Of a stretch of 64,000 bases of DNA, positions 16,628-36,432 are shown piece by piece (position 1 is the first letter of the stretch; every line of letters begins with the position of its first letter). Source of the stretch: Myxococcota bacterium (GTDB taxonomy: Bacteria > Myxococcota_A > UBA9160 > UBA6930). The position numbers and the translations under genes were made by a program. The DNA lies in NCBI GenBank assembly GCA_965223415.1, contig OZ245002.1:5000757-5064756 (forward strand), in the 5' to 3' direction. A model generated the notes under the pieces. The model was not told where the DNA came from. It made no database searches and saw only the letters and a list, made by a program, of their open reading frames with translations.

Positions 16628-17050
16628 CTAGATCAGGCGGTCGAGCCCGCTGCGGAGGGTGCTGGCGAGATCGCGGAGGATCGCCTCCAGGATTCGCGTC
16701 GCGGCGCGCGGTGCGTCGTCGGACAGGCGCAGGAAGGCGCTGCGAGGGAAGAGCAGCACCCGGGAGGCCTCGGCCGCCGCCGCGGTGAGCTCCCGGCGAC
16801 CGAGGGCGGCCAGAGAGGTACCGCCCAGGTGCCGGCCGGCGGGCAGCGTGACGAGCTCGCCCACCCGGGCGCTCGAGAGCAGCAGCGAGCCCAGGGCCAC
16901 CAGCACCAGCCCGTCGGCCTCGTCGCCCTCCTCCACCACGATCTCACCCATGCCGAGCTCCCGCGCCTCGACGAGATCGCTCACCATGGCGAGCTCCTCC
17001 TCGCTCAGCTCCGCGAAGGGCGCGAAGCGCTTGAGATCGGCGCCGTTCAT
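16628..17050 (-). CDS. stand-alone cyclic-nucleotide-binding-like domain protein
   Basis: Only the last 140 aa of ORF 16628..17884 are used, starting MNGADLKRFAPFAELSEEELAMVSDLVEARELGMGEIVVEEGDEADGLVLV, a CAP-effector-domain pattern. The ATG overlaps the upstream stop (ATGA at 17047-17050). The phosphate-binding cassette looks atypical (GGTSLAALGRRELTA). Confidence 0.78.
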   Translation of the reverse strand: MNGADLKRFAPFAELSEEELAMVSDLVEARELGMGEIVVEEGDEADGLVLVALGSLLLSSARVGELVTLPAGRHLGGTSLAALGRRELTAAAAEASRVLLFPRSAFLRLSDDAPRAATRILEAILRDLASTLRSGLDRLI

Positions 17051-18588
17051 GGCAGGACCCGTCCCAGCATGGTGCCCAGCAAGGCGACCGGGTCGCGCTC
17101 GCCCTCCAGCGGCAGCAGGAAGACCGAGGCCTGATCGAGGAGGCCGAGGCTTGGCTCCAGCTCCGCCCGCGCGAGCTTCTCGCCCTTCGGCAGCACGATC
17201 ACGTGGAAGACCCGGGCTTCCGGGCCCCGGCTGCGGATCTGCTCGACCAACGGCCGCAGCCGCTCCTCGTCCTCGTGATGGGGCCAGCGCATGAGCAGCA
17301 GGGTGCCGAGGGCACCGTGGGTCAGGGCGGGCCAGCAGGCGGCGTAGCGCGGGTCGCTCGGCACCTGAAGGAGCTGGACCATCAGGCCCTCGCCGACCTC
17401 GATGCGTCCCAGCACCGCCACGTCTTCCGGGCGGTACTCGCCCGAGCCACCGGGCTCCATGCGCACGCCCGGCAGGGCCGCGAGCACGCGGACGAAGTCC
17501 CGGGTCCCCGCCGGGTCCGCCGCCGCCAGCAGCAGCTTGGCCTCCTTGGCCGCGCTGCCTCGGGGCCGACCCGCCTGCAGCCACTCCCGCAGGCGCCGCT
17601 TCTGGGCGGTATCGAAGAGGCCCTCGAGGCTGCCCGCCTCGCCTTGCTCGGCCTCGCGGCGCAGCTGGACGAGCCCGCGCTCGCAGAGGGTCTGGAGGGT
17701 GCGGAGCACCTGGTAGTCCGGGAAGCTGGTCCGGTCGAGCAGGTCGCCGACCCGCTCGTCGCGCTCGAGCAGGCCCAAGAGCTCCTGGGTCACCGGGTGG
17801 AGCGCGGAGGGCAGCTCCTCGCGCGGCACGGCCAGGCTCACCCGAGCGGAGGTCGGCGGCAGGGACTCGCGCAGCTGGTCCCACTCGTCGAGCTGGCGCA
17901 GCGCCTCCATCAGGAGGGCCCGTGTCGGCGTGGTGATCCGCGGCGCCATGGTCACCGTGCCCGGCGTGAAGGCGAAGCGGCCCTCCCGCCAGGAGAGCAT
18001 GCGGAAGAGCGCCTTCTCGCCCTCCACCCGGCCCGCGGTCGCCTGCACCAGGTTGCCGTCGCGCAGGATCAGGGCGCCCTGCTCGTCCTGGTGGCCGCCC
18101 TCCTCCCGGGCCAGCTCGATCGTCCCGGTCCGTCGGTTCATGTGGAAGAGCTGGAGCAGATCGGTGAGCGGGATCTGGGCGAGCTTGCCCTGGACCTCCT
18201 GCTGGGCTTCCGCTTCGCGCTCCACCGCGTCGATGCGCTCGCGCTGGGCCAGGATCGCTTCGATTCGCAGGGCCACGTCCTCCGCCGAAGCGGACGGCGG
18301 CAGGGCGTCGTCGAAGAAGCCGCCGTTGATCGGGTCGTCGCCGAGGAAGAGGAAGCGAACCCCTTGGGTCCGCGGGTTGGCCCTTAGGATCTTCGCGAGG
18401 GTGCCGGCATCGATCAGCTCCAGATCGACCGGCGCCACCAGGACGTCGGGCACGTCCGCCAGCGCGGCCTCGAGGGCGGCCGCGCCGGTCCGCACGCAGC
18501 TCGTCGCGTAGCCGCGGGCGGCGCAGGCGTCCGCGAGCTGGCGCGCCCGGCTGGGCAGGCTCTCGGCGATGAGGATCGCGCTACTCAC
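17047..18588 (-). CDS. receiver-like / PATAN (DUF4388) / small-GTPase-like (no P-loop) multidomain protein
   Basis: 513 aa. The N-terminus has a CheY-like pattern (AILIAES...DVLVAPVDLELIDAG) without an obvious conserved Thr or Lys. The DUF4388 signature is IPLTDLLQLFHMNRRTGTIEL...GEKALFRMLSWREGRFAF. C-terminal residues ~348-513 follow MglA/Ras-like strand order, but with ADPAGTRD in place of GxxxxGK[ST]. Confidence 0.78.
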   Translation of the reverse strand: MSSAILIAESLPSRARQLADACAARGYATSCVRTGAAALEAALADVPDVLVAPVDLELIDAGTLAKILRANPRTQGVRFLFLGDDPINGGFFDDALPPSASAEDVALRIEAILAQRERIDAVEREAEAQQEVQGKLAQIPLTDLLQLFHMNRRTGTIELAREEGGHQDEQGALILRDGNLVQATAGRVEGEKALFRMLSWREGRFAFTPGTVTMAPRITTPTRALLMEALRQLDEWDQLRESLPPTSARVSLAVPREELPSALHPVTQELLGLLERDERVGDLLDRTSFPDYQVLRTLQTLCERGLVQLRREAEQGEAGSLEGLFDTAQKRRLREWLQAGRPRGSAAKEAKLLLAAADPAGTRDFVRVLAALPGVRMEPGGSGEYRPEDVAVLGRIEVGEGLMVQLLQVPSDPRYAACWPALTHGALGTLLLMRWPHHEDEERLRPLVEQIRSRGPEARVFHVIVLPKGEKLARAELEPSLGLLDQASVFLLPLEGERDPVALLGTMLGRVLP

Positions 18589-18617
18589 CGATCGGGTTCT
18601 CCATCTCCCGGCTCGCG

Positions 18618-20537
18618 CTACTCACCGATCGGAATCCCAAGGTCGTGGCCCAGCTGGAAGGCCAGCTGCTCGACCACCACCGGATCGGAGGTGTGGAAGG
18701 TGGTGGCGTCGTCGGCGCTGCCGTCTTGCAGGAACGCATACGAGGCTCCCTCGCCCATGTAGACGAGGAAGGGCTGCTCGCGGGTGCCGGAGCTCGGCGC
18801 CACCCACGTGACCGGAACGCCCGGCATCAGCTGCTCGTCGCGCTCGGCGAAGAGGAAGACGTCCGTGTGGGGCGTGGTGCCGCGCAGCTGCTCCAGGCCC
18901 CCGCGCAGGGAGCCGGCCTCGCCGCCGGGCGGCGCCAGGAAGAGCAGCCCCCGCTGATGGGGATTGCGGCTCACCTCGTCGAGAAGGAAGCGCGCCATCT
19001 GGTCGCCGAGCTCCCCGCGCCCTTCGTCGCCTTCGGCCAGGAGGCTCTCCAGGAGCCGCCGGAAGGGGACCTCCTCCAGCTCGTAGCGGCGGAGCAGGCT
19101 CTTGCGGTCCTCCTCGATGCGCCGCTCGAGGCAGGCGTGCAGGGAGGTCCGGTCGACACCGTTCGACGGGAAGGTGGCCATGGCGGAAAGGACCACGGGC
19201 CGGTCGTCGCCCAGCTCCCGGAGCGCCGGACTGCGCTCCACCGCCGTCCGCAGCCGCCGCTTCGCCACCGCCGAGCCCAGGCTGTCGCACTCGGGCAGCA
19301 TGACCAGGTACTCGTGGTCGCTCTGGGTCGCCAGCAGGTCGGTGACCCGCACCGCCTTCTCCAGATCGGCCACCACCGCCTGGATCCAGGCGCTGAACTC
19401 CCGCAGCGAGAGGCGCTCGCGCACGGGGCCGATCGGGTCCAGCTGCATGCGCACGAGCGAGACACTGCGGCCGAAGCGCTTGGCCTTCTGGAGCTCGTGG
19501 TGGAGCACGTCGTCGAGGTAGGCGCCGGTGTAGGCGCGAGTGGTCGGGTCCTTGAAGGAGCGTCGCTCGAGGGACTGGAACTCGATCGCGTTGGCCAGCG
19601 CCTGGCTCGCGAACAGCGCGAAGCGCTCGGCCACCTCCCGGTCGGCCGCGTCGAATTCGGCGCCGTCGAGCCGGTCGGTCAGGCGCAGCACACCCAGCAA
19701 GCGGCCGTCGTGGCGAAGGGAGACGTAGAGCGGGGCCCGGGACGCACCGGTGCCCTCCGGCTGCAGCGAGCGGCAGCCCGGGTCCCGGAGTGGCTGGAGC
19801 GCTTCGGGCAGGCGATCCAGGACGAGCTGCGTCTCCTCCTCGTCGACCCGCACCAGGCCGCCCACGCCGCACAGCTCGAGTGCCCGCGGCGGGTCCCCGT
19901 CCGCGAGCCAGGCGACCCCGGCGTGGGCGTTCGTCTCCAGGCAGAGCACCTCGACCACGCGATCGGCCAGGGGCTCCAGCGAAAGCGTCGAGAACAAGCT
20001 CAGCGCTCGCTCGTACTGGGCGAAGTGGCCCATGAAGGACAGATTCTCGGCGACCAGGCGGTCGTGCTCGGCGTGCATGGCCCGGCGTTCGAGCACGCCG
20101 TCGATCGCGCGCAGCAGCGAGGTGCGGTCGATGGGCTTGAGCAGGTAGTCCGTCGCACCGAGCCGCATCGCTTCCACGGCGGTCTTCACGTCGCCCACGC
20201 TGGTGACCACCACCACGTCCTGCTCCGGCCAGCGCTCCTTCACCTGGCGGACGAGCTCGCGGCCGTCCATCTCGGGCATCACCAGATCCGTGAGGACCAG
20301 GTCGACCGGCTCCTCCTCCATCAGGGCGAGGGCCTCGGCGCCGCTTCCGGCCGTGACGACCTCGAAGTCTTCCTGCTGAAGGAGGTCCTCGAGGAACACC
20401 CGGAAGTAGAGCTGGTCGTCGACCGCGAGGATGCGCGCCTGGTTCAAGGCTCTTGCCTCGCGTGATGGGTCCGGGCCTGGTTCAAGGATCACCCCTCCCG
20501 GATCCTGTCCGGGCATGGTTCGTAGGCCCTTCCTCAC
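18618..20537 (-). CDS. response regulator with GAF-like, degenerate GGDEF and DICT-like domains
   Basis: 639 aa. REC domain (RILAVDDQ, LVLTDLVMPEMDG, YLLKP). GAF-like middle region. GGDEF-like region with RVTD then SDHEY instead of GG[DE]EF. C-terminal VFLFAERDE...EQPFLVYMGEGASYAFLQDG...FHTSDPVVVEQL resembles a DICT domain. The GTG start overlaps the miaB stop; an ATG at 20516 is an alternative start. Confidence 0.8.
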   Translation of the reverse strand: MRKGLRTMPGQDPGGVILEPGPDPSREARALNQARILAVDDQLYFRVFLEDLLQQEDFEVVTAGSGAEALALMEEEPVDLVLTDLVMPEMDGRELVRQVKERWPEQDVVVVTSVGDVKTAVEAMRLGATDYLLKPIDRTSLLRAIDGVLERRAMHAEHDRLVAENLSFMGHFAQYERALSLFSTLSLEPLADRVVEVLCLETNAHAGVAWLADGDPPRALELCGVGGLVRVDEEETQLVLDRLPEALQPLRDPGCRSLQPEGTGASRAPLYVSLRHDGRLLGVLRLTDRLDGAEFDAADREVAERFALFASQALANAIEFQSLERRSFKDPTTRAYTGAYLDDVLHHELQKAKRFGRSVSLVRMQLDPIGPVRERLSLREFSAWIQAVVADLEKAVRVTDLLATQSDHEYLVMLPECDSLGSAVAKRRLRTAVERSPALRELGDDRPVVLSAMATFPSNGVDRTSLHACLERRIEEDRKSLLRRYELEEVPFRRLLESLLAEGDEGRGELGDQMARFLLDEVSRNPHQRGLLFLAPPGGEAGSLRGGLEQLRGTTPHTDVFLFAERDEQLMPGVPVTWVAPSSGTREQPFLVYMGEGASYAFLQDGSADDATTFHTSDPVVVEQLAFQLGHDLGIPIGE

Positions 20538-24620: not shown

Positions 24621-26045
24621 CTACAGAACCAGCCGGTCGACGACCCGGGAGAGCTGCTTCAGGTTCCGGCACTCCTCGGCGACGTCCGTATGGGGCAGGT
24701 ATTTGTCCATCACGCTGTCGCCGAAGCCCCAGGCGGAGGGGCTCTCCGGGTTCAGCCAGACGACGTCCTTGGCCTTGTTGCGGATGTCGCGCAGGCACCA
24801 GGCGCGGGGGTCGTTGTAGTTGTTCCGGGCGTCGCCCAGGATGAGCACGGTCGTCTTGTTGTCGATGGAGGACAGGAAGTTCTGCCAGAAGTGGTGGAAG
24901 GCGAAACCGAAGTTCGAACGGGTATAGACGTTGATCACGTCGCCGCCGTCGAGGGCCTTCTCGATGGCGTCGTTGATGTCCTTGTCCTTGAAGACCTGGG
25001 TCACCTCGCCCAGCTCGGACACGAAGACGAAGGCGCGGATCTTCGTGAAGCACTCCTGCAGGCTGTACATGAACTGCAGCATGAAACGGGAGACGTTGGC
25101 CACGGAGCTCGAGACGTCGCAGAGAATCACCAGCTTCGGCTTCTCCTTGCGGCGCTGCTTGAAGATCAGGTCGAAGGGCACGCCGCCGTGGGCCATGTTG
25201 CGGCGCAGCATGGTGTGGAGGTCGAGCTTGCCCTTCTTGAGCCGGCGTTTGCGGATCGAGAGCACGTTCTTGATGCGCTGGGCCAGCCGGGCGACCACCT
25301 CGCGCATCTTCTTGATCTCGTCCTCGGTGAGGTTGTAGAAGCTCTTCTCGAGCAGGCTCTCGCGGCGGAACTTCTCCATGTAGTCGAAGTTCTGCTGCTG
25401 GAGCTGGCGCTCGGTGTAGTTCCGGACGCTCTTGCGCAGGGCCTCCAGGAACTTGTCGATCAGCTCCATCAGGGCTTCGACCTCGGCGTCGCCCATACCC
25501 GACTCGCGGAGCTGCTGGGCCAGCTCGCGGAGCTGGTCCCCGGCCCCCTCGGCGTCCATCTGCTCCATCGTGCGCCGGGTGAAGAAGCCCAGCTGGAGCA
25601 TGTTCTCGATGCGCTCGACCCCGGCGGCCTCGGCCGCCTCCCGGATCAGCTGCTCGAGCTTGTCCAGATCCTGGGTAAGCAGCGCCTTGGCGAGCTCCGA
25701 CAGGTCGAGATCCTGCGGATTGCCCTCCATGTTCTGCATGCCGTCCTGGATGGCCTGCATCAGCTGCTCGAGGTCGAACTCGCCGCCCATCTCGCCTGCG
25801 GCGTTGTCGAAGGAGTTGCGCAGCCCGTCGTAGAAGGCCGACCAGTAGAGATCGAACATCTGGTCGAAGGTGGGGATGTCCTCGGAGCGCTTCACCATGG
25901 TGGTGCGCAGCGCGTCCTTGAAGATCTCCCGGTCGCCGAGGGAGAGCTCGTCGAGCGCCGTGAAGGCGTCGATCGACTCCGCCACCGACACCCGGATCCC
26001 GCTCTTCCGGAGCAGATTGGTGAAATCGACGATCTTCTGCTGCAC
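24621..26045 (-). CDS. VWA domain protein, CoxE-like
   Basis: 474 aa. The N-terminus MQQKIVDFTNLLRKSGIRVSVAESIDAFTAL is typical of CoxE-family proteins. The C-terminal VWA domain has a MIDAS-like LVILCDVSSSV. It is paired with a MoxR ATPase immediately upstream. Confidence 0.85.
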   Translation of the reverse strand: MQQKIVDFTNLLRKSGIRVSVAESIDAFTALDELSLGDREIFKDALRTTMVKRSEDIPTFDQMFDLYWSAFYDGLRNSFDNAAGEMGGEFDLEQLMQAIQDGMQNMEGNPQDLDLSELAKALLTQDLDKLEQLIREAAEAAGVERIENMLQLGFFTRRTMEQMDAEGAGDQLRELAQQLRESGMGDAEVEALMELIDKFLEALRKSVRNYTERQLQQQNFDYMEKFRRESLLEKSFYNLTEDEIKKMREVVARLAQRIKNVLSIRKRRLKKGKLDLHTMLRRNMAHGGVPFDLIFKQRRKEKPKLVILCDVSSSVANVSRFMLQFMYSLQECFTKIRAFVFVSELGEVTQVFKDKDINDAIEKALDGGDVINVYTRSNFGFAFHHFWQNFLSSIDNKTTVLILGDARNNYNDPRAWCLRDIRNKAKDVVWLNPESPSAWGFGDSVMDKYLPHTDVAEECRNLKQLSRVVDRLVL

Positions 26046-26055
26046 GGGGACCCCT

Positions 26056-27051
26056 CTAGTGCAGGACGCCCTTCTTGGCGGGCTTCGGCGCTTCGGCCTC
26101 CGCCGGCTTGCCCTCCGGGGCGGCCTCGGTCGCTTCCTCCGCCTTGCGGGTGATCAGCCGGCCGAGCTCGGCCTGGGTCTTCTTGATGTCGCCCTCGTAC
26201 TTGAGGATCACGTTCAGCGTGTCGCGCACCAGGTCCTCGTCCAGCTCGTTGGCGTTGAGCGCCAGGAGCGCCCGGGCCCAGTCGAGGGTCTCGCTGATCG
26301 AGGGCGTCTTCTTGAGGTCGAGCTTGCGCAGGCGCTGCATCACGCCCACCAGCTCTTCGGCCAGGCGTCGGTCGATGCCCTCGACCTTCTTGTCGAGGAT
26401 CCTCACCTCGAGCTCCTCGGTCGGGAAGTCGATGTAGAGGTGGAGGCAGCGGCGCTTGAGCGCGTCGCTCATCTCCCGGGCGTCGTTCGAGGTGAGGAAG
26501 ACGATCGGCTTGTGACGGGCCTCCAGGGTGCCGACCTCGGGCACCGTGACCTGGAAGTCCGAGAGCACCTCCAGCAGGAAGGCTTCGAACTCCGGGTCGC
26601 TCTTGTCCACCTCGTCGATCAGGAGCAGCGTGGGCTGCTCGGCCTGGATCGCGCGGAGGAGCGGCCGGGGCACGATGAAGTTCTCGGAGAAGAAGACGCT
26701 GTCCTCCTCGCCCACCCGGGCGGCGGCGTCCTTGACCGTGGTGGTCCCGGCCATCGCCTCGGAGAACTTCTCCTTCAGGATCTGGGTGTAGAGGAGCTGC
26801 TTCGAGTACTCCCACTCGTAGAGGGCCTTGGCCTCGTCGAGCCCCTCGTAGCACTGCAGCCGGATCATCGGCCGCCCAGTGGCGGCGGAGACGACCTTGG
26901 CGAGCTCGGTCTTGCCGACGCCGGCCGGGCCCTCCACCAGCACCGGCTTCTCCAGCTTCGACGCCAGGAAGACCACCGTCGCGATGTTCTTGTCGCAGAT
27001 GTAGTCCTGGGCGTCGAGCTGCTCGATGACTTGCTCGGGCGAGTCGAACAT
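26056..27051 (-). CDS. MoxR-like AAA+ ATPase (CoxD-like)
   Basis: 331 aa. Walker A GPAGVGKTELAK, YEWEYSKQLL, Walker B LLLIDEVDK, and a Lys/Ala/Glu/Pro-rich C-terminal tail. Confidence 0.9.
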   Translation of the reverse strand: MFDSPEQVIEQLDAQDYICDKNIATVVFLASKLEKPVLVEGPAGVGKTELAKVVSAATGRPMIRLQCYEGLDEAKALYEWEYSKQLLYTQILKEKFSEAMAGTTTVKDAAARVGEEDSVFFSENFIVPRPLLRAIQAEQPTLLLIDEVDKSDPEFEAFLLEVLSDFQVTVPEVGTLEARHKPIVFLTSNDAREMSDALKRRCLHLYIDFPTEELEVRILDKKVEGIDRRLAEELVGVMQRLRKLDLKKTPSISETLDWARALLALNANELDEDLVRDTLNVILKYEGDIKKTQAELGRLITRKAEEATEAAPEGKPAEAEAPKPAKKGVLH

Positions 27052-28680: not shown

Positions 28681-29328
28681 CTACTGGAGGTTCTTGAGCA
28701 CGCCCTTCAGGAAGTCGTCCTCGGAGACGGCGAACTTCTCGTGGAAGGCGTGACGCGCGTCGAGGAAGCGGTAGACCCGGCGCAGCAGCTCGCGGAAGGT
28801 CTCCACCACGCCTTCGCCGCGCATGGCCACCGCGGGGAAGGTCGGGATGTCGCCCCAGGCGCTGCGGATCTCCTCGAGGTCCTTCACGTCCGGGAGGTCG
28901 CGCTTGTTGAACTGCACGACCTTCGGAATGGCGTCGAAGTCGATGCCGTTCGACTTCAGGTTCGCCTCCATGTCGCGCCAGCTGTAGGCGTTGGCGCCGG
29001 CGGAGGAGCGCTGGGAATCGGCGACGAAGACCACGCCGTCGGCACCGGCCAGCACGACCTTGCGAGTCGACTTGTGCATCACCTGGCCCGGCACGGTGAA
29101 GAGCTTCAGCTTCATGGTGAAGCCGCCGGAGGTGCCGAAGGAGACCGGCAGGAAGTCGAAGTAGAGGGTGCGGTCGTCGGCCGTGTCGAGGGTGACCATC
29201 TTGCCGCGGGTCTCGGGGTCGAGCAGCTCGTGGAGCTTCTGCAGGTTCGTGGTCTTGCCCGAGAGCGCCGGCCCGTAGTAGACGAGCTTCAGCACGATCT
29301 CACGGCCCGCCATGTTGATCTGCACCAT
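28681..29328 (-). CDS. mglA: MglA-type Ras-like small GTPase
   Basis: An internal ATG at 29328 gives [30 protein letters not shown]...[10 protein letters not shown]...TVPGQV...[12 protein letters not shown]...QFNKRDLP. By eye this is collinear with M. xanthus MglA motifs. It carries an extra ~25-aa C-terminal tail. Confidence 0.85.
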
Positions 29329-29425
29329 CGGCCACGCTCCGCCCGGGCCTGGGGCCCGTGATGCCGGTCTCATCGGCAGGAAGCGGTCGGAAATGAAGGT
29401 GGCAGCCGGGGAAACGGCCTGCGGG

Positions 29426-30399
29426 TCAATCCCCGCGGAAGGCCCTCAGCAGGGCTCGGGCCCCGGCGGCCGGCGTGGCTCGTTGCGCCTCGACCTCGGC
29501 CTCCCAGCGGCGGACTTCCGCGGCGACGGCCGGGTGGGCGCGGAAGGCCTGGGCCAAGCCCTCCTCCACCAGGGTCCACATCCATTGGCGGGCCTGGGCG
29601 CGGCGACGGGCCTCGAGCTCGCCGCTGGCCTCGAGAGCCCGGCGGTGGCCCTGGACGGTCTCCCAGACCTCCGGGAGCCCCACCCGCTCGAGCGAGCTCA
29701 CCGAGAGGACCCGCGGGCTCCAGCCGGGGGTGGTCGGCCGCAGGAGCTGGAGGGCTCCTTCGTGCTCGCCGCGGGTGCGTTCGGCGATGGCCTTCTGCTC
29801 GCCGTCGGCCTTGTTCACGATCAGAGCGTCGGCCAGCTCGAGGGCGCCCTTCTTGATGCCCTGGAGCTCGTCGCCGGAGCCGGGCTGGAGCAGCACGAGG
29901 AAGGTGTCGACCAGGGAGCGCACCGCCACCTCCGACTGGCCGATCCCCACGGTCTCGACGATCACCACGTCGAAGCCTGCGGCCTCGCACAGAAGCAGCG
30001 CCTCCCGCGTGCGGTGGGCGACGCCGCCCAGGGCGCCGCCGGAGGGCGAGGGGCGGATGAAGGCGCGCTCGTCGCTGGCGAGCTGCTCCATGCGCGTCTT
30101 GTCGCCGAGAATGCTGCCGCCGGTCACCGGGCTCGAGGGGTCGACCGCCAGCACGGCCACCCGGTGCCCCTCGGCGAGCAGGTGGAGGCCGAAGCTCTCG
30201 ATGAAGGTGCTCTTGCCGACGCCGGGCGGGCCGGTGATGCCGATCCGCACGGCGCCGCCGGTCTCCCCGACCAGCGCCTCGAGGATCTCCTGGGCCTGGG
30301 CCTGGTGGTCCTCGCGGGTGCTCTCGATCCAGGTGATGGCGCGGGCCAGGCTGCGGCGATCGCCCCGACGGATGGCGGCGGCGTGCTCCCGGGCGGAGG

Positions 30400-30403
<4 letters not shown>
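29426..30403 (-). CDS. meaB: methylmalonyl-CoA mutase-associated G-protein chaperone MeaB/ArgK
   Basis: This is the C-terminal 325 aa of ORF 29426..32515. The GTG start overlaps the mutase stop (GTGA at 30400-30403). Motifs are [35 protein letters not shown] and NKAD. Confidence 0.9.
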
Positions 30404-32532
<2,129 letters not shown>

Positions 32533-32604
32533 CTCCGCTCCTTCCGCCGCCCGCGCTTCGAGCCCCGTGGGGTCTCCGACGCGGCGGCCAGACGTTAGCC
32601 CCTG

Positions 32605-35600
32605 TCACATGGAGCGCCGGTAGCGCCCCCCGACCTGGAACAGCGCGTCCGAGATCTGTCCCAGGCTCGCCACCTGCACGGTCTCCATCAGCTCCCGGAA
32701 GAGGTTCCCGCCGCTTCGGGCCGTCTCCTGGAGCCGGGCAAGGGCCGGCGCGCAGGCCTCCCGGTGCCGGGCGTGGAACTCCGCCAGCCCCTCGATCTGG
32801 GCCCGCTTCTCCGCCTCGCTCGCGCGCATCAGCGCCACCGGCTGCTGCGCCTCCTCCGGCTCCGGGTTCAGGAAGGTGTTCACGCCCACGATGGGCAGCT
32901 CGCCCGAGTGCTTCAGGGATTCGTAGTGCAGGCTCTCGTCCTGGATCTTGCCGCGCTGGTAGTGGGTCTCCATCGCGCCGAGCACGCCGCCCCGCTGGGA
33001 CAGGCGCTCGAATTCCTGGAGCACCGCCTCCTCCACCGCGTCGGTGAGCCACTCGCTGAAGTAGGAGCCCTGCAGACCGTTCTCGTTCTTGGCCGCGCCG
33101 AGCTCCCGATTGATCACGAGCTGGATCGCGAGGGCGCGCCGCACCGATTCGGGCGTGGGCGTCGTGACCGCCTCGTCGTAGGCGTTCGTGTGCAGGCTGT
33201 TGCAGTGGTCCTGGATCGCGGTGAGCGCTTGGAGCGTGGTGCGGATGTCGTTGAAGGCCATCTCCTGGGCGTGCAGCGACCGGCCCGAGGTCTGGATGTG
33301 GTACTTGAGCTTCTGGCTGCGTTCGTCGGCGCCGTAGAGATCGCGCATCGCGATCGCCCAGATCCTCCGGGCCACCCGGCCGATCACGTTGTACTCCGCG
33401 TCGAGGCCGTTGCTGAAGAAGAAGGAGAAGTTCGGCGCGAACTCGTCCACGGCCATGCCGCGGGCCCGGTAGGCCTCCACGTAGGTGAAGCCATTGGCCA
33501 GGGTGAAGGCCAGCTGCGTAATCGGGTTCGCTCCCGCCTCGGCGATGTGGTAGCCGGAGATCGAGACCGAGTAGAAGTTTCGCACCTGCTCGTCGACGAA
33601 GAACTGCTGGATGTCGCCCATCACCTTGAGGGCGAAGGCGGTGGAGAAGATGCAGGTGTTCTGGGCCTGGTCCTCCTTGAGGATGTCGGCCTGCACCGTG
33701 CCGCGGACCGTGCGCAGGACGTCGCCGCGGATGCGCGCGTAGGTCTCCGCGTCGACGGCCTCGCGGCCGGTGATCCCGAGCAGGCCGAGACCGAGGCCTT
33801 CGTGGCCCGGCGGCAGCTCGGCGCGATAGGCCGGGAGCGCGTCGCCGCCCTGGCGCTCGCGCACCGCCTCGAGCTGGCCCGTCTCGCGCAGGTGCTTCTC
33901 CACCCCCTGGTCGACGGCGGCATTCAGGAAGAGCGCCAGCACCATCGGCGCCGGGCCGTTGATCGTCATCGACACCGAGGTCGACGGATCGCACAGGTCG
34001 AATCCGGAGTAGAGGCGCTTGGCGTCGTCGAGGGTGCACACGGAGACGCCGCTGGTGCCGATCTTGCCGTAGACGTCGGGACGTTCGGCGGGGTCACGCC
34101 CGTAGAGGGTGACGCTGTCGAAGGCGGTGGAGAGGCGGGTGGCCGGCTGCCCCTCGGAGACCAGGTGGAAGCGCCGGTTGGTGCGCTCCGGCCCGCCCTC
34201 CCCCGCGAACATGCGCGCCGGATCCTCCTCGGCGCGCTTGAACGGGAACACACCGCTGGTGAAGGGAAAGTGGCCGGGCAGGTTCTCCTGGCGCAGGTAG
34301 CGGGTGAGCTCGCCCCAGTCGCCCCCGCGTGGCACGGCGACCCGCGGGAGCTTCGTGCCGGAGAGGGTTTCGGCCCGGTTCTCGACGTGGACCTTTCGGC
34401 CGCGCACCTCGTAGGACTGGCTGTCCGCTTCGTAGCGGGTGCGCGTCTCCGACCACGCCTCCAGGGCCTCCCGGAGGGCCGGGTCGAGGGCGTCGCGGCG
34501 GGCGGCGTGCTCGGCGGCCACGACCTCGCGGGCGGTACCGGCCTCGGCGGGGAGCGCGTCTTCGGCGAGGGCGAGGGCCTGGGCGCTCCGGGCCTCCCCG
34601 GCCAGCGCCTCGGTGCGGTCCCGATAGCTCCGCACGCAGCCCGCGATCTCCTCCAGGTACCGCTCGCGGCCCGCGGGCACGAGCGGCGGCGGCTCGGCGA
34701 TGCCCTTCGCCTCGCGCTCGGCCGGCCGCGCCAGCGCCGAGGCCCCATCGGCCACGAGCCGCTCGCGCAGCCGCTCGAACACGACGTCGACGCCCGGGTC
34801 GTCCCACTGGCTGGCCACGGTCGCGACCACCGGAACCGCCTCGTCGTCGGCGTCGAAGACGGTGTGGTTGCGGCGCCACTGCTTGCGGACGTCGCGCAGG
34901 GCGTCGAGGGCGCCGCGGCGGTCGGTCTTGTTCAGCACGACGAGATCGGCGAGCTCGAGCATGTCGATCTTCTCGAGCTGGGACGGCGCGCCGTACTCGG
35001 GTGTCATCACGTAGACCGAAGTGTCCGCCAGGTCGACGATCTCCGAGTCGCTCTGGCCGATGCCGGCGGTCTCGATCAAGACGAGGTCGAAGTCCGCGGC
35101 CTGGAGCACCTGCACCGCGTCCCGGATCGCCCGGGAGAGCGCCAGGTGGGCCTGACGGGTCGCGAGGGAGCGCACGTAGACGGTCTCGCCCTGGATCGCA
35201 TTCATGCGGATCCGATCGCCCAGGAGGGCGCCGCCGCTGCGGCGCCGCGAGGGGTCGACCAGCAGCAGGCCGATGCGCAGCGCGGGGAAGCCCAGCCGGA
35301 AGCGCCGGACCAGCTCGTCCACGACGCTCGACTTGCCGGCGCCGCCGGTCCCGGTGAAGCCGACGACCGGCGCCGGCGCCCGACCGCGCCGGCTCGCGAG
35401 GAGCGCGCGGGCCTCCGCGGCCTCTCCGTCCTCCGACGGTAGGAGGGACTCCAGCCAGGAGATCACCCGCGCGACGCTGCCGGGCCGATCGGCGGCGAGC
35501 TCGCGGAGGGCGTCGCCGAGGGGCGGTGCCGGAAGCGCGCGGCACTCGTCCACGATCGTGCGGATCATGCCCTCGAGCCCCAGGCTGCGCCCGTCCTCCG

Positions 35601-35982
35601 GACTGAAGATCCGGGCCACCCCGTGGGCGTGGAGGGTCTCGATCTCCTCCGGCACGATCGTGCCCCCGCCGCCGCCATACACGCGGATGTGTCCCGCGCC
35701 GCGGCTCGCCAGCTCGTCCACCAGGTAGCGGAAGAACTCCATGTGCCCGCCCTGGTAGGAGGAGATCGCCACCGCGTGGGCGTCCTCCTCGATCGCCGCC
35801 TCGACGATCTCCGCGACGGAGCGGTCGTGACCCAAGTGGATCACCTCGGCGCCCTGGGACTGCAGGATGCGCCGCATGATGTTGATGGCCGCATCGTGGC
35901 CGTCGAAGAGCGAGGCGGCGGTGACGATCCGGATGCGCTCGGGCGCCGGCTGGATCGGTGTGACTTCGGCAGTGGCGGTCAT
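32605..35982 (-). CDS. icmF: fused isobutyryl-CoA mutase (B12 domain / MeaB-like GTPase / mutase barrel)
   Basis: 1125 aa. N-terminal B12 domain LFDGHDAAINIM. GTPase domain GFTGTGGAGKSS, ETAGIGQSD, NKTD. Mutase barrel with RMFAGEGGPERTNRRFH (Phe at the ICM-type position). Confidence 0.9.
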   Translation of the reverse strand: MTATAEVTPIQPAPERIRIVTAASLFDGHDAAINIMRRILQSQGAEVIHLGHDRSVAEIVEAAIEEDAHAVAISSYQGGHMEFFRYLVDELASRGAGHIRVYGGGGGTIVPEEIETLHAHGVARIFSPEDGRSLGLEGMIRTIVDECRALPAPPLGDALRELAADRPGSVARVISWLESLLPSEDGEAAEARALLASRRGRAPAPVVGFTGTGGAGKSSVVDELVRRFRLGFPALRIGLLLVDPSRRRSGGALLGDRIRMNAIQGETVYVRSLATRQAHLALSRAIRDAVQVLQAADFDLVLIETAGIGQSDSEIVDLADTSVYVMTPEYGAPSQLEKIDMLELADLVVLNKTDRRGALDALRDVRKQWRRNHTVFDADDEAVPVVATVASQWDDPGVDVVFERLRERLVADGASALARPAEREAKGIAEPPPLVPAGRERYLEEIAGCVRSYRDRTEALAGEARSAQALALAEDALPAEAGTAREVVAAEHAARRDALDPALREALEAWSETRTRYEADSQSYEVRGRKVHVENRAETLSGTKLPRVAVPRGGDWGELTRYLRQENLPGHFPFTSGVFPFKRAEEDPARMFAGEGGPERTNRRFHLVSEGQPATRLSTAFDSVTLYGRDPAERPDVYGKIGTSGVSVCTLDDAKRLYSGFDLCDPSTSVSMTINGPAPMVLALFLNAAVDQGVEKHLRETGQLEAVRERQGGDALPAYRAELPPGHEGLGLGLLGITGREAVDAETYARIRGDVLRTVRGTVQADILKEDQAQNTCIFSTAFALKVMGDIQQFFVDEQVRNFYSVSISGYHIAEAGANPITQLAFTLANGFTYVEAYRARGMAVDEFAPNFSFFFSNGLDAEYNVIGRVARRIWAIAMRDLYGADERSQKLKYHIQTSGRSLHAQEMAFNDIRTTLQALTAIQDHCNSLHTNAYDEAVTTPTPESVRRALAIQLVINRELGAAKNENGLQGSYFSEWLTDAVEEAVLQEFERLSQRGGVLGAMETHYQRGKIQDESLHYESLKHSGELPIVGVNTFLNPEPEEAQQPVALMRASEAEKRAQIEGLAEFHARHREACAPALARLQETARSGGNLFRELMETVQVASLGQISDALFQVGGRYRRSM

Positions 35983-36383
35983 TCGGAGGCCTCCCGGCTC
36001 AGCGCCAGGGCGCGGGCCCCCACGTGGTCCCGGTACTTCTGGATGTCGTCGCGGAGCGCGCCGAGCTCGCGGATGCGCTCGTCGAGCTCGCCCAGGTGGC
36101 GGCCCAGCAGCTCGCCCAAGTGCTGGAGCATGGCCGCGGTGGACCCCTCGATGGCGTAGACCGCGTTCAGCTCACCGATCTCGGCGAGGCTGAGACCGAG
36201 GGCCTTGAGCCGCTGGATGAAGCGCAGGCGCTGGAGCTCGTCGTCGCCGTACACCCGTCGCGCCCCGGCGCGGCGGCGCACGCCGGGAAGCAGGCCGAGC
36301 TCCTCCCAGTAGCGGACCGTGCGCGGAGAGAGGCCGGTGGCTCGGCAGACCTCACCGATCGAGTGCAGGTGCTCCTCGGGCAT
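35979..36383 (-). CDS. MerR-family transcriptional regulator, coupled to icmF
   Basis: From the ATG at 36383: MPEEHLHSIGEVCRATGLSPRTVRYWEELGLL (MerR HTH), followed by a coiled-coil dimerisation helix. The stop overlaps the icmF ATG (ATGA at 35979-35982). The listed TTG start at 36425 would lie inside the operator. Confidence 0.8.
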   Translation of the reverse strand: MPEEHLHSIGEVCRATGLSPRTVRYWEELGLLPGVRRRAGARRVYGDDELQRLRFIQRLKALGLSLAEIGELNAVYAIEGSTAAMLQHLGELLGRHLGELDERIRELGALRDDIQKYRDHVGARALALSREASE

Positions 36384-36400
36384 GGGATCCCATCGGCTTG

Positions 36401-36432
36401 TTTGCCAGTTGACGTGAGCTGGCAAATATAGC
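36401..36432 (+). promoter_or_regulatory. MerR-type promoter/operator with 19-bp spacer, facing the aldo/keto reductase
   Basis: -35 TTGCCA at 36402-36407, a 19-nt spacer, then -10 TATAGC at 36427-36432. The spacer is framed by the perfect 8-bp inverted repeat TTTGCCAG (36401-36408) / CTGGCAAA (36419-36426). It lies 55 nt upstream of the ATG at 36487 and divergent from the merR gene. Confidence 0.5.

Follow-up and report, generated by a model that had tools for sequence, protein, structure and literature searches.

PATAN domains are widespread, and their mechanism is poorly understood. Their genomic neighbourhood with MglA and MglB has reportedly been noted since 2006, and a physical link between the partners is said to be undemonstrated. 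It is documented that MglA/MglB genes often adjoin PATAN genes (bioRxiv 10.1101/2021.06.11.447907; PMC4316618), that in Synechocystis the pilus ATPase PilB1 is a binding partner of PATAN domains and that Myxococcus xanthus is reported to have more than a dozen PATAN proteins (bioRxiv 10.1101/2021.06.11.447907). Here we analyse a minus-strand gene in a stretch of 64,000 nucleotides (nt) from a Myxococcota bacterium (GenBank assembly GCA_965223415.1, contig OZ245002.1, positions 5,000,757 to 5,064,756), called the window below. From its sequence, the product, a protein of 513 amino acids (aa) referred to as the target, reads as a dead receiver, a PATAN/winged-helix protein and the neighbouring small GTPase in one chain. 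We put at about three in four the probability that its C-terminal part is a fossil, nucleotide-free G domain, descended from MglA/CvnD-like GTPases and serving as a fixed binding surface in an adaptor protein.

The closest described systems are the MglA/CvnD-like GTPases found beside PATAN (Wuichet & Sogaard-Andersen 2014, PMC4316618; Makarova et al. 2006), to which the tail of the target is homologous in sequence and in fold. Common to both is the partnership with a PATAN/winged-helix protein, which takes the form of a gene pair in four loci (L081-L084) and of a fusion here, and the target retains the V-P of the MglA motif TVPGQ together with the switch-II Trp of the actinobacterial proteins. 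Whereas the MglA/CvnD-like GTPases are stand-alone proteins of ~175-230 aa with intact GxxxxGKT, [T/G]xPGQ and NKxD motifs, the tail of the target is a C-terminal domain from which the motifs have been lost, and the target, unlike those systems, has no adjacent MglB/Roadblock gene and lies outside a pilus cluster. Two proteins, P0246 and P0297, are intermediate, being stand-alone, fully or partly degenerate, and encoded beside PATAN.

A G fold without G motifs is also found in the eukaryotic pseudoGTPases CENP-M, p190RhoGAP pG1/pG2 and AAGAB psGD, which act as protein-protein interaction or scaffold modules in larger assemblies (PMC5593906, PMC12490416, PMC10211241). These have an unrelated origin and unrelated partners and have been tested biochemically, whereas the target is bacterial, fused to signalling domains and predicted. 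PatA-type regulators (PATAN-REC: PatA, PixG, PixE, LsiR) combine PATAN with a receiver, as does the target, but they carry PATAN at the N-terminus and a phosphorylatable receiver at the C-terminus; in the target the order is reversed (REC, then PATAN), the receiver is without Asp/Thr/Lys and has P53 at the acceptor Asp, the PATAN domain is without an alpha-helical insertion, and a pseudo-GTPase is added. FrzS of Myxococcus xanthus, a pilus/polarity regulator, likewise begins with a receiver fold that is missing its phospho-acceptor and serves as an interaction domain, but it runs into a coiled coil and has neither PATAN nor a G domain. No description of a PATAN-pseudoGTPase fusion was found in the searchable literature.

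Fold and nucleotide motifs of the C-terminal domain

An earlier reading of the window, made from the sequence only, had proposed that the tail of the target follows the strand/helix order of MglA-type GTPases, and this order is borne out by the predicted topology, by the fold search and by profile matches in the same register. Residues ~325-513 are predicted, with high confidence, to have the fold of a small Ras/MglA-type GTPase. The AlphaFold2 model, built for aa 322-513 on an alignment of this region cut from 32 diverse homologues (A2), has a mean predicted local distance difference test score (pLDDT) of 87.3 and a predicted template modelling score (pTM) of 0.85. Its elements follow one another as an N-terminal helix, β1, α1, a short strand, the β2-β3 hairpin, α2, β4, α3, β5, α4, β6 and α5, so that the model contains six strands and the antiparallel β2-β3 hairpin typical of G domains.

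Foldseek returned 1096 matches in the PDB at E ≤ 1e-3, and every one of the top 50 is a Rab, Arf/Arl, Rap or Rheb protein (E-values 5e-7 to 4e-6, template modelling scores (TM-scores) 0.5-0.63). Structure prediction and fold search, the check proposed with the earlier reading, therefore point to a small GTPase and not to a Rossmann or flavodoxin fold. Searched against the PDB, the A2 sequence profile matched small GTPases only, barring one weak stray match; the scores were E 0.004 for IFT22 and E 0.4-2 for Arf6, Rab25, Rab11 and Rab2. In these alignments KLLL falls on β1, HVP...W on DxxGQ...W and GALGxLLLL on β4.

The nucleotide motifs have gone from this fold. Replacement of every one of them, as claimed for the single protein, holds throughout the 168 full-length family members over which column frequencies were tabulated: the P-loop Lys, DxxG, an intact NKxD and SAK occur in none, and the patterns that mark Ras-superfamily GTPases (G1 GxxxxGK[ST], G3 DxxG(Q), G4 NKxD, G5 SA[KL]) are all absent. 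The position of the G1 Lys is Thr in 68% and Leu in 12% of the members and Lys in none, and Arg takes the next position, that of the Ser/Thr. At G3, His (68%) or Gln (10%) stands in place of the Asp and Ala (45%) in place of the Gly, the motif now reading H/Q-V-P-A/S. The HVP of this segment aligns with the TVPGQ of MglA and the GTPGQ of actinobacterial GTPases, and its Trp with the invariant Trp of the latter. At G4 the first column holds Arg (47%), Gln (12%), His (9%) or Pro (7%), followed by Lys (76%), Gly (71%) and Glu (66%); the G5 columns hold Pro (55%), Leu (60%) and Glu (70%).

A cryptic P-loop was sought in the 266 collected proteins, in the columns of the 168 members and in the most distant relatives (27-31% identity), and none was found anywhere in the family; in particular, a Walker A motif stands at the P-loop position in 0 of the 266. 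The agreement in fold and register and the loss of the motifs exceed chance by far. Since the P-loop is lost even in the most distant relatives, the dead state is ancestral to the family. The domain passes for a small GTPase by its fold and fails on every motif, and therefore is not a functional member of the GTPase family; having kept the G fold and lost the G motifs, it would count as a pseudoGTPase. We predict that it belongs to the class-I type, which would neither bind nor hydrolyse nucleotide.

We regard as unlikely the alternative that the domain is a ligand-binding switch holding GTP, (p)ppGpp, cyclic di-GMP (c-di-GMP) or a cyclic nucleoside monophosphate (cNMP) in a remodelled, non-canonical pocket. 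Charged and aromatic residues near the former pocket are indeed kept (K351 93%, H408 68%, H424 67%, K468 76%, E470 66%, R459 85%), second-messenger-type domains occur in both operon neighbours, and some recognised pseudoGTPases bind nucleotide without hydrolysing it (PMC10211241). However, the phosphate-binding loop is not merely mutated but cut down, the β1-α1 loop comprising 2 residues by DSSP on the model, against the ~7 that a P-loop requires; the G1 pair of Lys and Ser/Thr is present in 0 of the 168 members; and the best-conserved residues lie on the switch-II/β4 face and not round the pocket. The positions conserved at 85-98% are K351, P410, P417, W419, L427, G428, R459 and R510, mostly on the β3/switch-II/α2/β4 face, with P410 at 96%, P417 at 88%, W419 at 98%, L427 at 92% and G428 at 89%.

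The family in which this face is conserved is large. Among the candidates scored, at least 688 full-length homologues were found at E ≤ 1e-3, and the top 120 listed, mostly full length, range in identity from 75% down to ~48%. When one genome per species was scanned by pattern, with the full-length alignment as query, at least 460 genomes proved to encode a relative, and the best 80 of these loci all come from uncultured Myxococcota or 'Deltaproteobacteria' metagenome-assembled genomes. A Myxococcus xanthus orthologue was not identified, although a scan by patterns is no proof that cultured species lack one. Among 1.84 billion representative proteins the A2 profile found 260 matches, nearly all of them either proteins of ~500 aa that end in the domain or pieces of such proteins. 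The pseudo-GTPase domain is present in essentially every complete member of the family and is retained across relatives from 75% down to 27% identity, with K351, P410, W419, G428 and R510 conserved at 89-98%.

This retention bears on a further possibility, that the domain is a relic whose only use would be to cap the C-terminus as a folded piece and so steady the PATAN/winged-helix unit. Such an origin would agree with the loss of all catalytic motifs and with the shortened C-termini of a few distant members (L073, L076, L080), yet we hold it to be highly unlikely, for the surface positions W419, P410 and GALG remain 89-98% conserved down to 27% identity and essentially no complete member is without the domain. 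Conservation of the surface together with retention of the domain argues for selection on the surface and not on the core alone.

Relatives of the tail and of its PATAN partner

The homology of the tail to active GTPases is visible only through intermediates, namely the proteins P0246 and P0265 and an alignment of 30 active actinobacterial GTPases (A5). P0246 (180 aa, E 1.3e-7) and P0265 (192 aa, E 1.6e-6) are stand-alone proteins, and they are the two listed matches of the A2 profile outside the family that were examined; Pfam assigns both to ATP_bind_1, as it does a genuine MglA paralogue encoded elsewhere in the window. By hhalign match probability, A2 matches P0265 at 93.8% over 109 columns and A5 at 70.5% (E 3.9e-5) from β2 to β6, with HVP on TPG(Q) and the invariant Trp of one alignment on that of the other, and A5 in turn matches the MglA paralogue at 92.6%, end to end over 164 columns. 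The label 'MglA-type' given in the sequence-only reading is thus supported indirectly, by a chain that runs from P0246 and P0265 through the active actinobacterial GTPases to MglA. Of the features of MglA itself (TxxGQ, an intact P-loop, NKxD), only the V-P of TVPGQ survives in the target.

The homologues of P0246 are actinobacterial (Coriobacteriia) GTPases of 175 aa in which GPFNAGKT, GTPGQ and NKVD are intact. In two assemblies the genes around these GTPases are arranged in the order PilB, a Roadblock/MglB-like protein, PATAN (DUF4388, E 3.5e-35), the GTPase, an unknown gene, PilB, PilT, PilC, pilin and PilD. The gene of P0246 has a PATAN gene on one side and genes of the PilB, PilC and pilin types on the other, and that of P0297, a half-degenerate relative, stands in the order PilB, PATAN, P0297, PilB, PilC, pilins, PilD, PilM. 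Altogether, three types of pilus cluster were inspected, and in L081, L082, L083 and L084 a PATAN gene directly precedes the (pseudo)GTPase gene inside a cluster of PilB/PilT/PilC/pilin/PilD genes. The stand-alone GTPase-like proteins beside PATAN genes in actinobacterial-type pilus clusters are encoded at 1563-2105 in L081 and at 6001-6567 in L084.

The other half of the gene pair can be followed in the same way. In hhalign, residues 132-313 of the target form a single block homologous to PATAN proteins of the pilus clusters (98.4% and 95.4%), which contain an alpha-helical insertion that the target does not. Because the PATAN part of the target is homologous to the PATAN proteins of the pilus clusters and its tail to their GTPase neighbours, the target reads as a fused gene pair.

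P0297 is partly degenerate, with its P-loop kept and G3 and G4 lost, and P0246 is fully degenerate, its motifs reading GPPHAGTT, GIPAR and GHWQ. Motif loss beside PATAN therefore occurred more than once.

It is very improbable that the resemblance is convergent and that AlphaFold and Foldseek were drawn towards GTPases by some other three-layer alpha/beta fold (flavodoxin-, receiver- or Rossmann-like), as the moderate TM-scores and the missing Pfam match might suggest, given the six strands with their antiparallel β2-β3 hairpin, the uniformly small-GTPase top 50, and a sequence-only match at E 1e-7 to stand-alone MglA/CvnD-like proteins in which β1, the TPGQ equivalent, the invariant Trp and the β4 positions all agree.

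Architecture, operon and surroundings of the gene

The features of the target gene and its neighbours are collected in Table 1. The gene has a G+C content at third codon positions of 0.94 in a window of 67-76% G+C. The earlier reading placed the domain exactly with respect to the frame, the codon of residue 348 beginning at 17547, and its domain order also stands, with a receiver-like N-terminus followed by PATAN and the GTPase-like tail. Its view of the extent of the domain needs amending: the tail is GTPase-like, but the domain does not start at residue 348, as the conserved helix of aa 327-338 (RRLR[DE]W, with W336 invariant) belongs to it and extends it to ~17616. The segment of aa 348-513 has no match in Pfam or NCBIfam, and phmmer with the whole protein against the PDB yielded weak REC matches only. 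The PATAN/DUF4388 match is strong (E 2.6e-25, 89.3 bits against a Pfam cut-off of 25). The MarR_2-type winged-helix signal behind it is weak (aa 279-315, E 0.006), and PDYQVLRT of this segment is nearly invariant across homologues.

Table 1. Features of the target gene and its operon neighbours (positions in the window).
Feature	Position	Strand	Basis
Whole gene: pseudo-receiver / PATAN / winged-helix-like / predicted pseudo-GTPase	17047..18588	-	open reading frame, 513 aa
Pseudo-receiver, aa 1-125, REC fold without phospho-acceptor	18214..18588	-	profile against PDB
PATAN / DUF4388 core, aa 133-236	17881..18192	-	Pfam PF14332
Winged-helix-like segment travelling with PATAN, aa 237-313	17650..17880	-	weak MarR_2 match and hhalign
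Predicted pseudo-GTPase domain including N-terminal helix, aa 325-513	17050..17616	-	AlphaFold2, Foldseek, profile matches
G1 (P-loop) remnant ADPAGTR, aa 357-363; family consensus SDPAATR	17500..17520	-	aligned to GPQRTGKT of IFT22 and GPSAAGTST of P0265
G3 / switch II / α2 / β4 face, aa 408-433, Q-V-P-S-D...W-P...G-A-L-G; most conserved surface	17290..17367	-	column frequencies
G4 remnant PKGE, aa 467-470; family consensus RKGE, in place of NKxD after β5	17179..17190	-	β5 ends at aa 466 in the model
G5 remnant PLE after β6, aa 493-495	17104..17112	-	β6 is aa 488-493 in the model
Upstream regulator, 639 aa: REC, GAF, degenerate GGDEF, C-terminal domain	18618..20537	-	Pfam REC 2.8e-28, GAF, GGDEF 2e-4
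Downstream gene, 140-aa single-domain cNMP-binding-like protein	16628..17050	-	Pfam PF00027, E 1e-8
Direct repeat CCGATCGGTGAGTAGCGCGA, two exact 20-nt copies 37 nt apart	18576-18595, 18613-18632	-	2 matches against 0 expected by chance

The receiver homology of the N-terminus is clear, the family profile matching the REC domain of PleD in the PDB at E 6e-11 along with FrzS and dozens of other receivers. The phospho-acceptor Asp, the Thr/Ser and the Lys are all missing: D53, T83 and K105 of PleD align to Pro, Gly and Pro of the family consensus, P53 stands at the Asp position in the alignment to 3nhm as well, and there is no Asp in the acceptor column among the rows listed of alignment A1. Judged by these residues, the receiver would be catalytically dead and cannot be phosphorylated in the usual way. 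The proposal that the fusion links two-component-like input to an MglA-like surface thus keeps its REC fold and loses a phospho-input of the protein's own. With Asp, Thr and Lys all lacking, any two-component input must come via the neighbouring true response regulator.

This regulator is part of a conserved neighbourhood. The order miaB, the 639-aa regulator, the target, the 140-aa cNMP-binding-like gene, guaB and guaA is kept in ~60 Myxococcota loci; the regulator gene adjoins the target gene in nearly all of the 80 loci, and the most distant loci retain miaB, the part of the regulator that comprises GGDEF and the C-terminal domain, and the target. The GGDEF-like domain (~19220-19530, minus strand) has a degenerate signature, SDHEY here and SDSEF in relatives, preceded at five residues by an RxxD I-site whose R63 and D66 are invariant. 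A degenerate GGDEF with an intact I-site is a pattern that resembles known c-di-GMP receptors. In an AlphaFold2 model of a 305-aa segment of the regulator (pLDDT 89), Foldseek matched GGDEF domains only, and the motifs of the domain suggest a c-di-GMP receptor rather than a cyclase.

The C-terminal domain of the regulator (18618-19070, minus strand, aa ~490-639) is confidently predicted (pLDDT 74-92) and carries the invariant motifs PF..Y.GEG..YA, HTSD and VEHLAFQL..DLGIPIGE; neither Pfam nor the PDB sequences yielded a match. A Roadblock/MglB-like identity was considered for this domain and found no support (hhalign 0.2%, no PDB sequence match), and the operon contains no Roadblock gene. As it stays beside the target in the most distant loci, it is a candidate partner.

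On the other side, the stop codon of the target overlaps the start of the cNMP-binding-like gene (ATGA), which lies downstream in most Myxococcota loci. The phosphate-binding cassette of its product is non-consensus over 43 orthologues, where the Glu expected in 'GE' and the Ser/Thr expected in 'R[ST]A' are both missing. Between the regulator and the target, one copy of the direct repeat CCGATCGGTGAGTAGCGCGA contains the stop codon of the regulator and the other the GTG start of the target, whereas in relatives (L040, L011, L018, L012) this stop and this start overlap by 8 nt within the same repeat sequence. A 37-bp duplication in the window has uncoupled the two genes, which are now 29 nt apart. 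The target gene is the middle member of a conserved trio with translational coupling.

The sequence-only reading had named the MglA-like protein of the window for modelling together with the target. Its gene (28681-29373, minus strand) encodes a genuine MglA-family GTPase with ~25 extra N-terminal and ~25 extra C-terminal residues; its immediate upstream neighbours are meaB and the methylmalonyl-CoA mutase genes, and it is not accompanied by an MglB/Roadblock gene. As a linked partner of the target it is rejected on context: it is 11 kb off, has metabolic neighbours and is absent from ±6 kb in 79 of the 80 related loci. In the sole exception, L038, an MglA-like homologue with 76% identity to the paralogue is found 6 kb upstream of the target homologue.

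Next to the paralogue, the open reading frame at 29370-29990 is rejected as a gene, being a spurious Arg-rich frame that overlaps meaB. Within the minus-strand stretch 29426-36425, MeaB occupies the tail of a long open reading frame (~29426-30400), and methylmalonyl-CoA mutase is encoded at 30400-32532. Next come a gene at 32605-35982, whose IcmF-like product joins a B12-binding domain to MeaB and mutase domains, and one for a MerR regulator at 35979-36425. Also on the minus strand, at 24621-27051, the gene of a MoxR-like AAA+ ATPase (26056-27051) adjoins that of a VWA CoxE-like protein (24621-26045), the pair being located between ribBA (riboflavin) and a membrane dipeptidase gene.

A proposed adaptor and its significance

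GTPases normally bind their regulators and effectors via the β3/switch-II/α2/β4 face. In the history that we propose, PATAN and a separate GTPase would have merged into one polypeptide in uncultured Myxococcota and related 'deltaproteobacterial' groups, after which the G domain would have lost every nucleotide-contacting motif while keeping its fold and this conserved face. The conserved switch-II face is most likely a permanent protein-binding surface, which could fix the PATAN/winged-helix unit in one state or dock an external partner, and the domain would then be the interaction module suggested by the earlier reading. As the receiver is also catalytically dead, the protein would act as an adaptor rather than a switch. 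Regulation would probably pass through the translationally coupled neighbours, that is, the phosphorylatable REC-GAF regulator with its c-di-GMP I-site and the cNMP-binding-like protein. Judging from the binding of PATAN to PilB1 in Synechocystis and from the MglA/MglB-PATAN neighbourhoods, the protein probably acts on a PilB-type ATPase or on the polarity machinery (bioRxiv 10.1101/2021.06.11.447907; PMC4316618; PMC11580455).

Several observations weigh against a fossil MglA/CvnD-like G domain with such a role. The similarity to real GTPases is limited, with TM-scores of just 0.5-0.63, a root-mean-square deviation of ~5 Å and 12-16% identity; the hhalign match to the active family reaches only 70% and covers β2-β6, and matches of the domain profile to the single sequences of H-Ras, Arf1 and the window MglA paralogue were not significant. 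Of NKxD a K-G-E remnant is still there, as is a conserved Lys where β1 begins. The pilus link comes from distant phyla and from three cluster types, two of which are closely related to each other, and no pilus genes were found within 6 kb of the Myxococcota operon (miaB to guaB/guaA) or among the ~26 window open reading frames scanned.

A tentative extension, which has an outside chance of being right, is that the fossil G domain permanently imitates an MglA-like GTPase in one of its nucleotide states, keeping the PATAN/winged-helix unit 'loaded' or competing with real MglA-type GTPases for MglB/RomR-type regulators or effectors. If so, the GTP cycle that gates PATAN control of pilus ATPases or polarity would have been replaced by phosphorylation and c-di-GMP, acting via the co-translated regulator, and the fusion would show directly, by a natural example, that PATAN proteins and MglA-like GTPases bind physically. 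To our knowledge, no bacterial nucleotide-free pseudoGTPase with a defined role is yet known, and this one would then be the first.

A natural fusion of PATAN/winged helix and GTPase is in itself classic fusion-based evidence for an interaction of the two, and it offers a stable single-chain complex for structural work. The trio to which the gene belongs is a module largely made up of 'dead' signalling domains, and its proposed wiring would lead phosphorylation and c-di-GMP into an adaptor. A fossil G domain of this kind would extend the pseudoGTPase concept, mostly eukaryotic so far, to a bacterial signalling family encoded in at least 460 species-level genomes.

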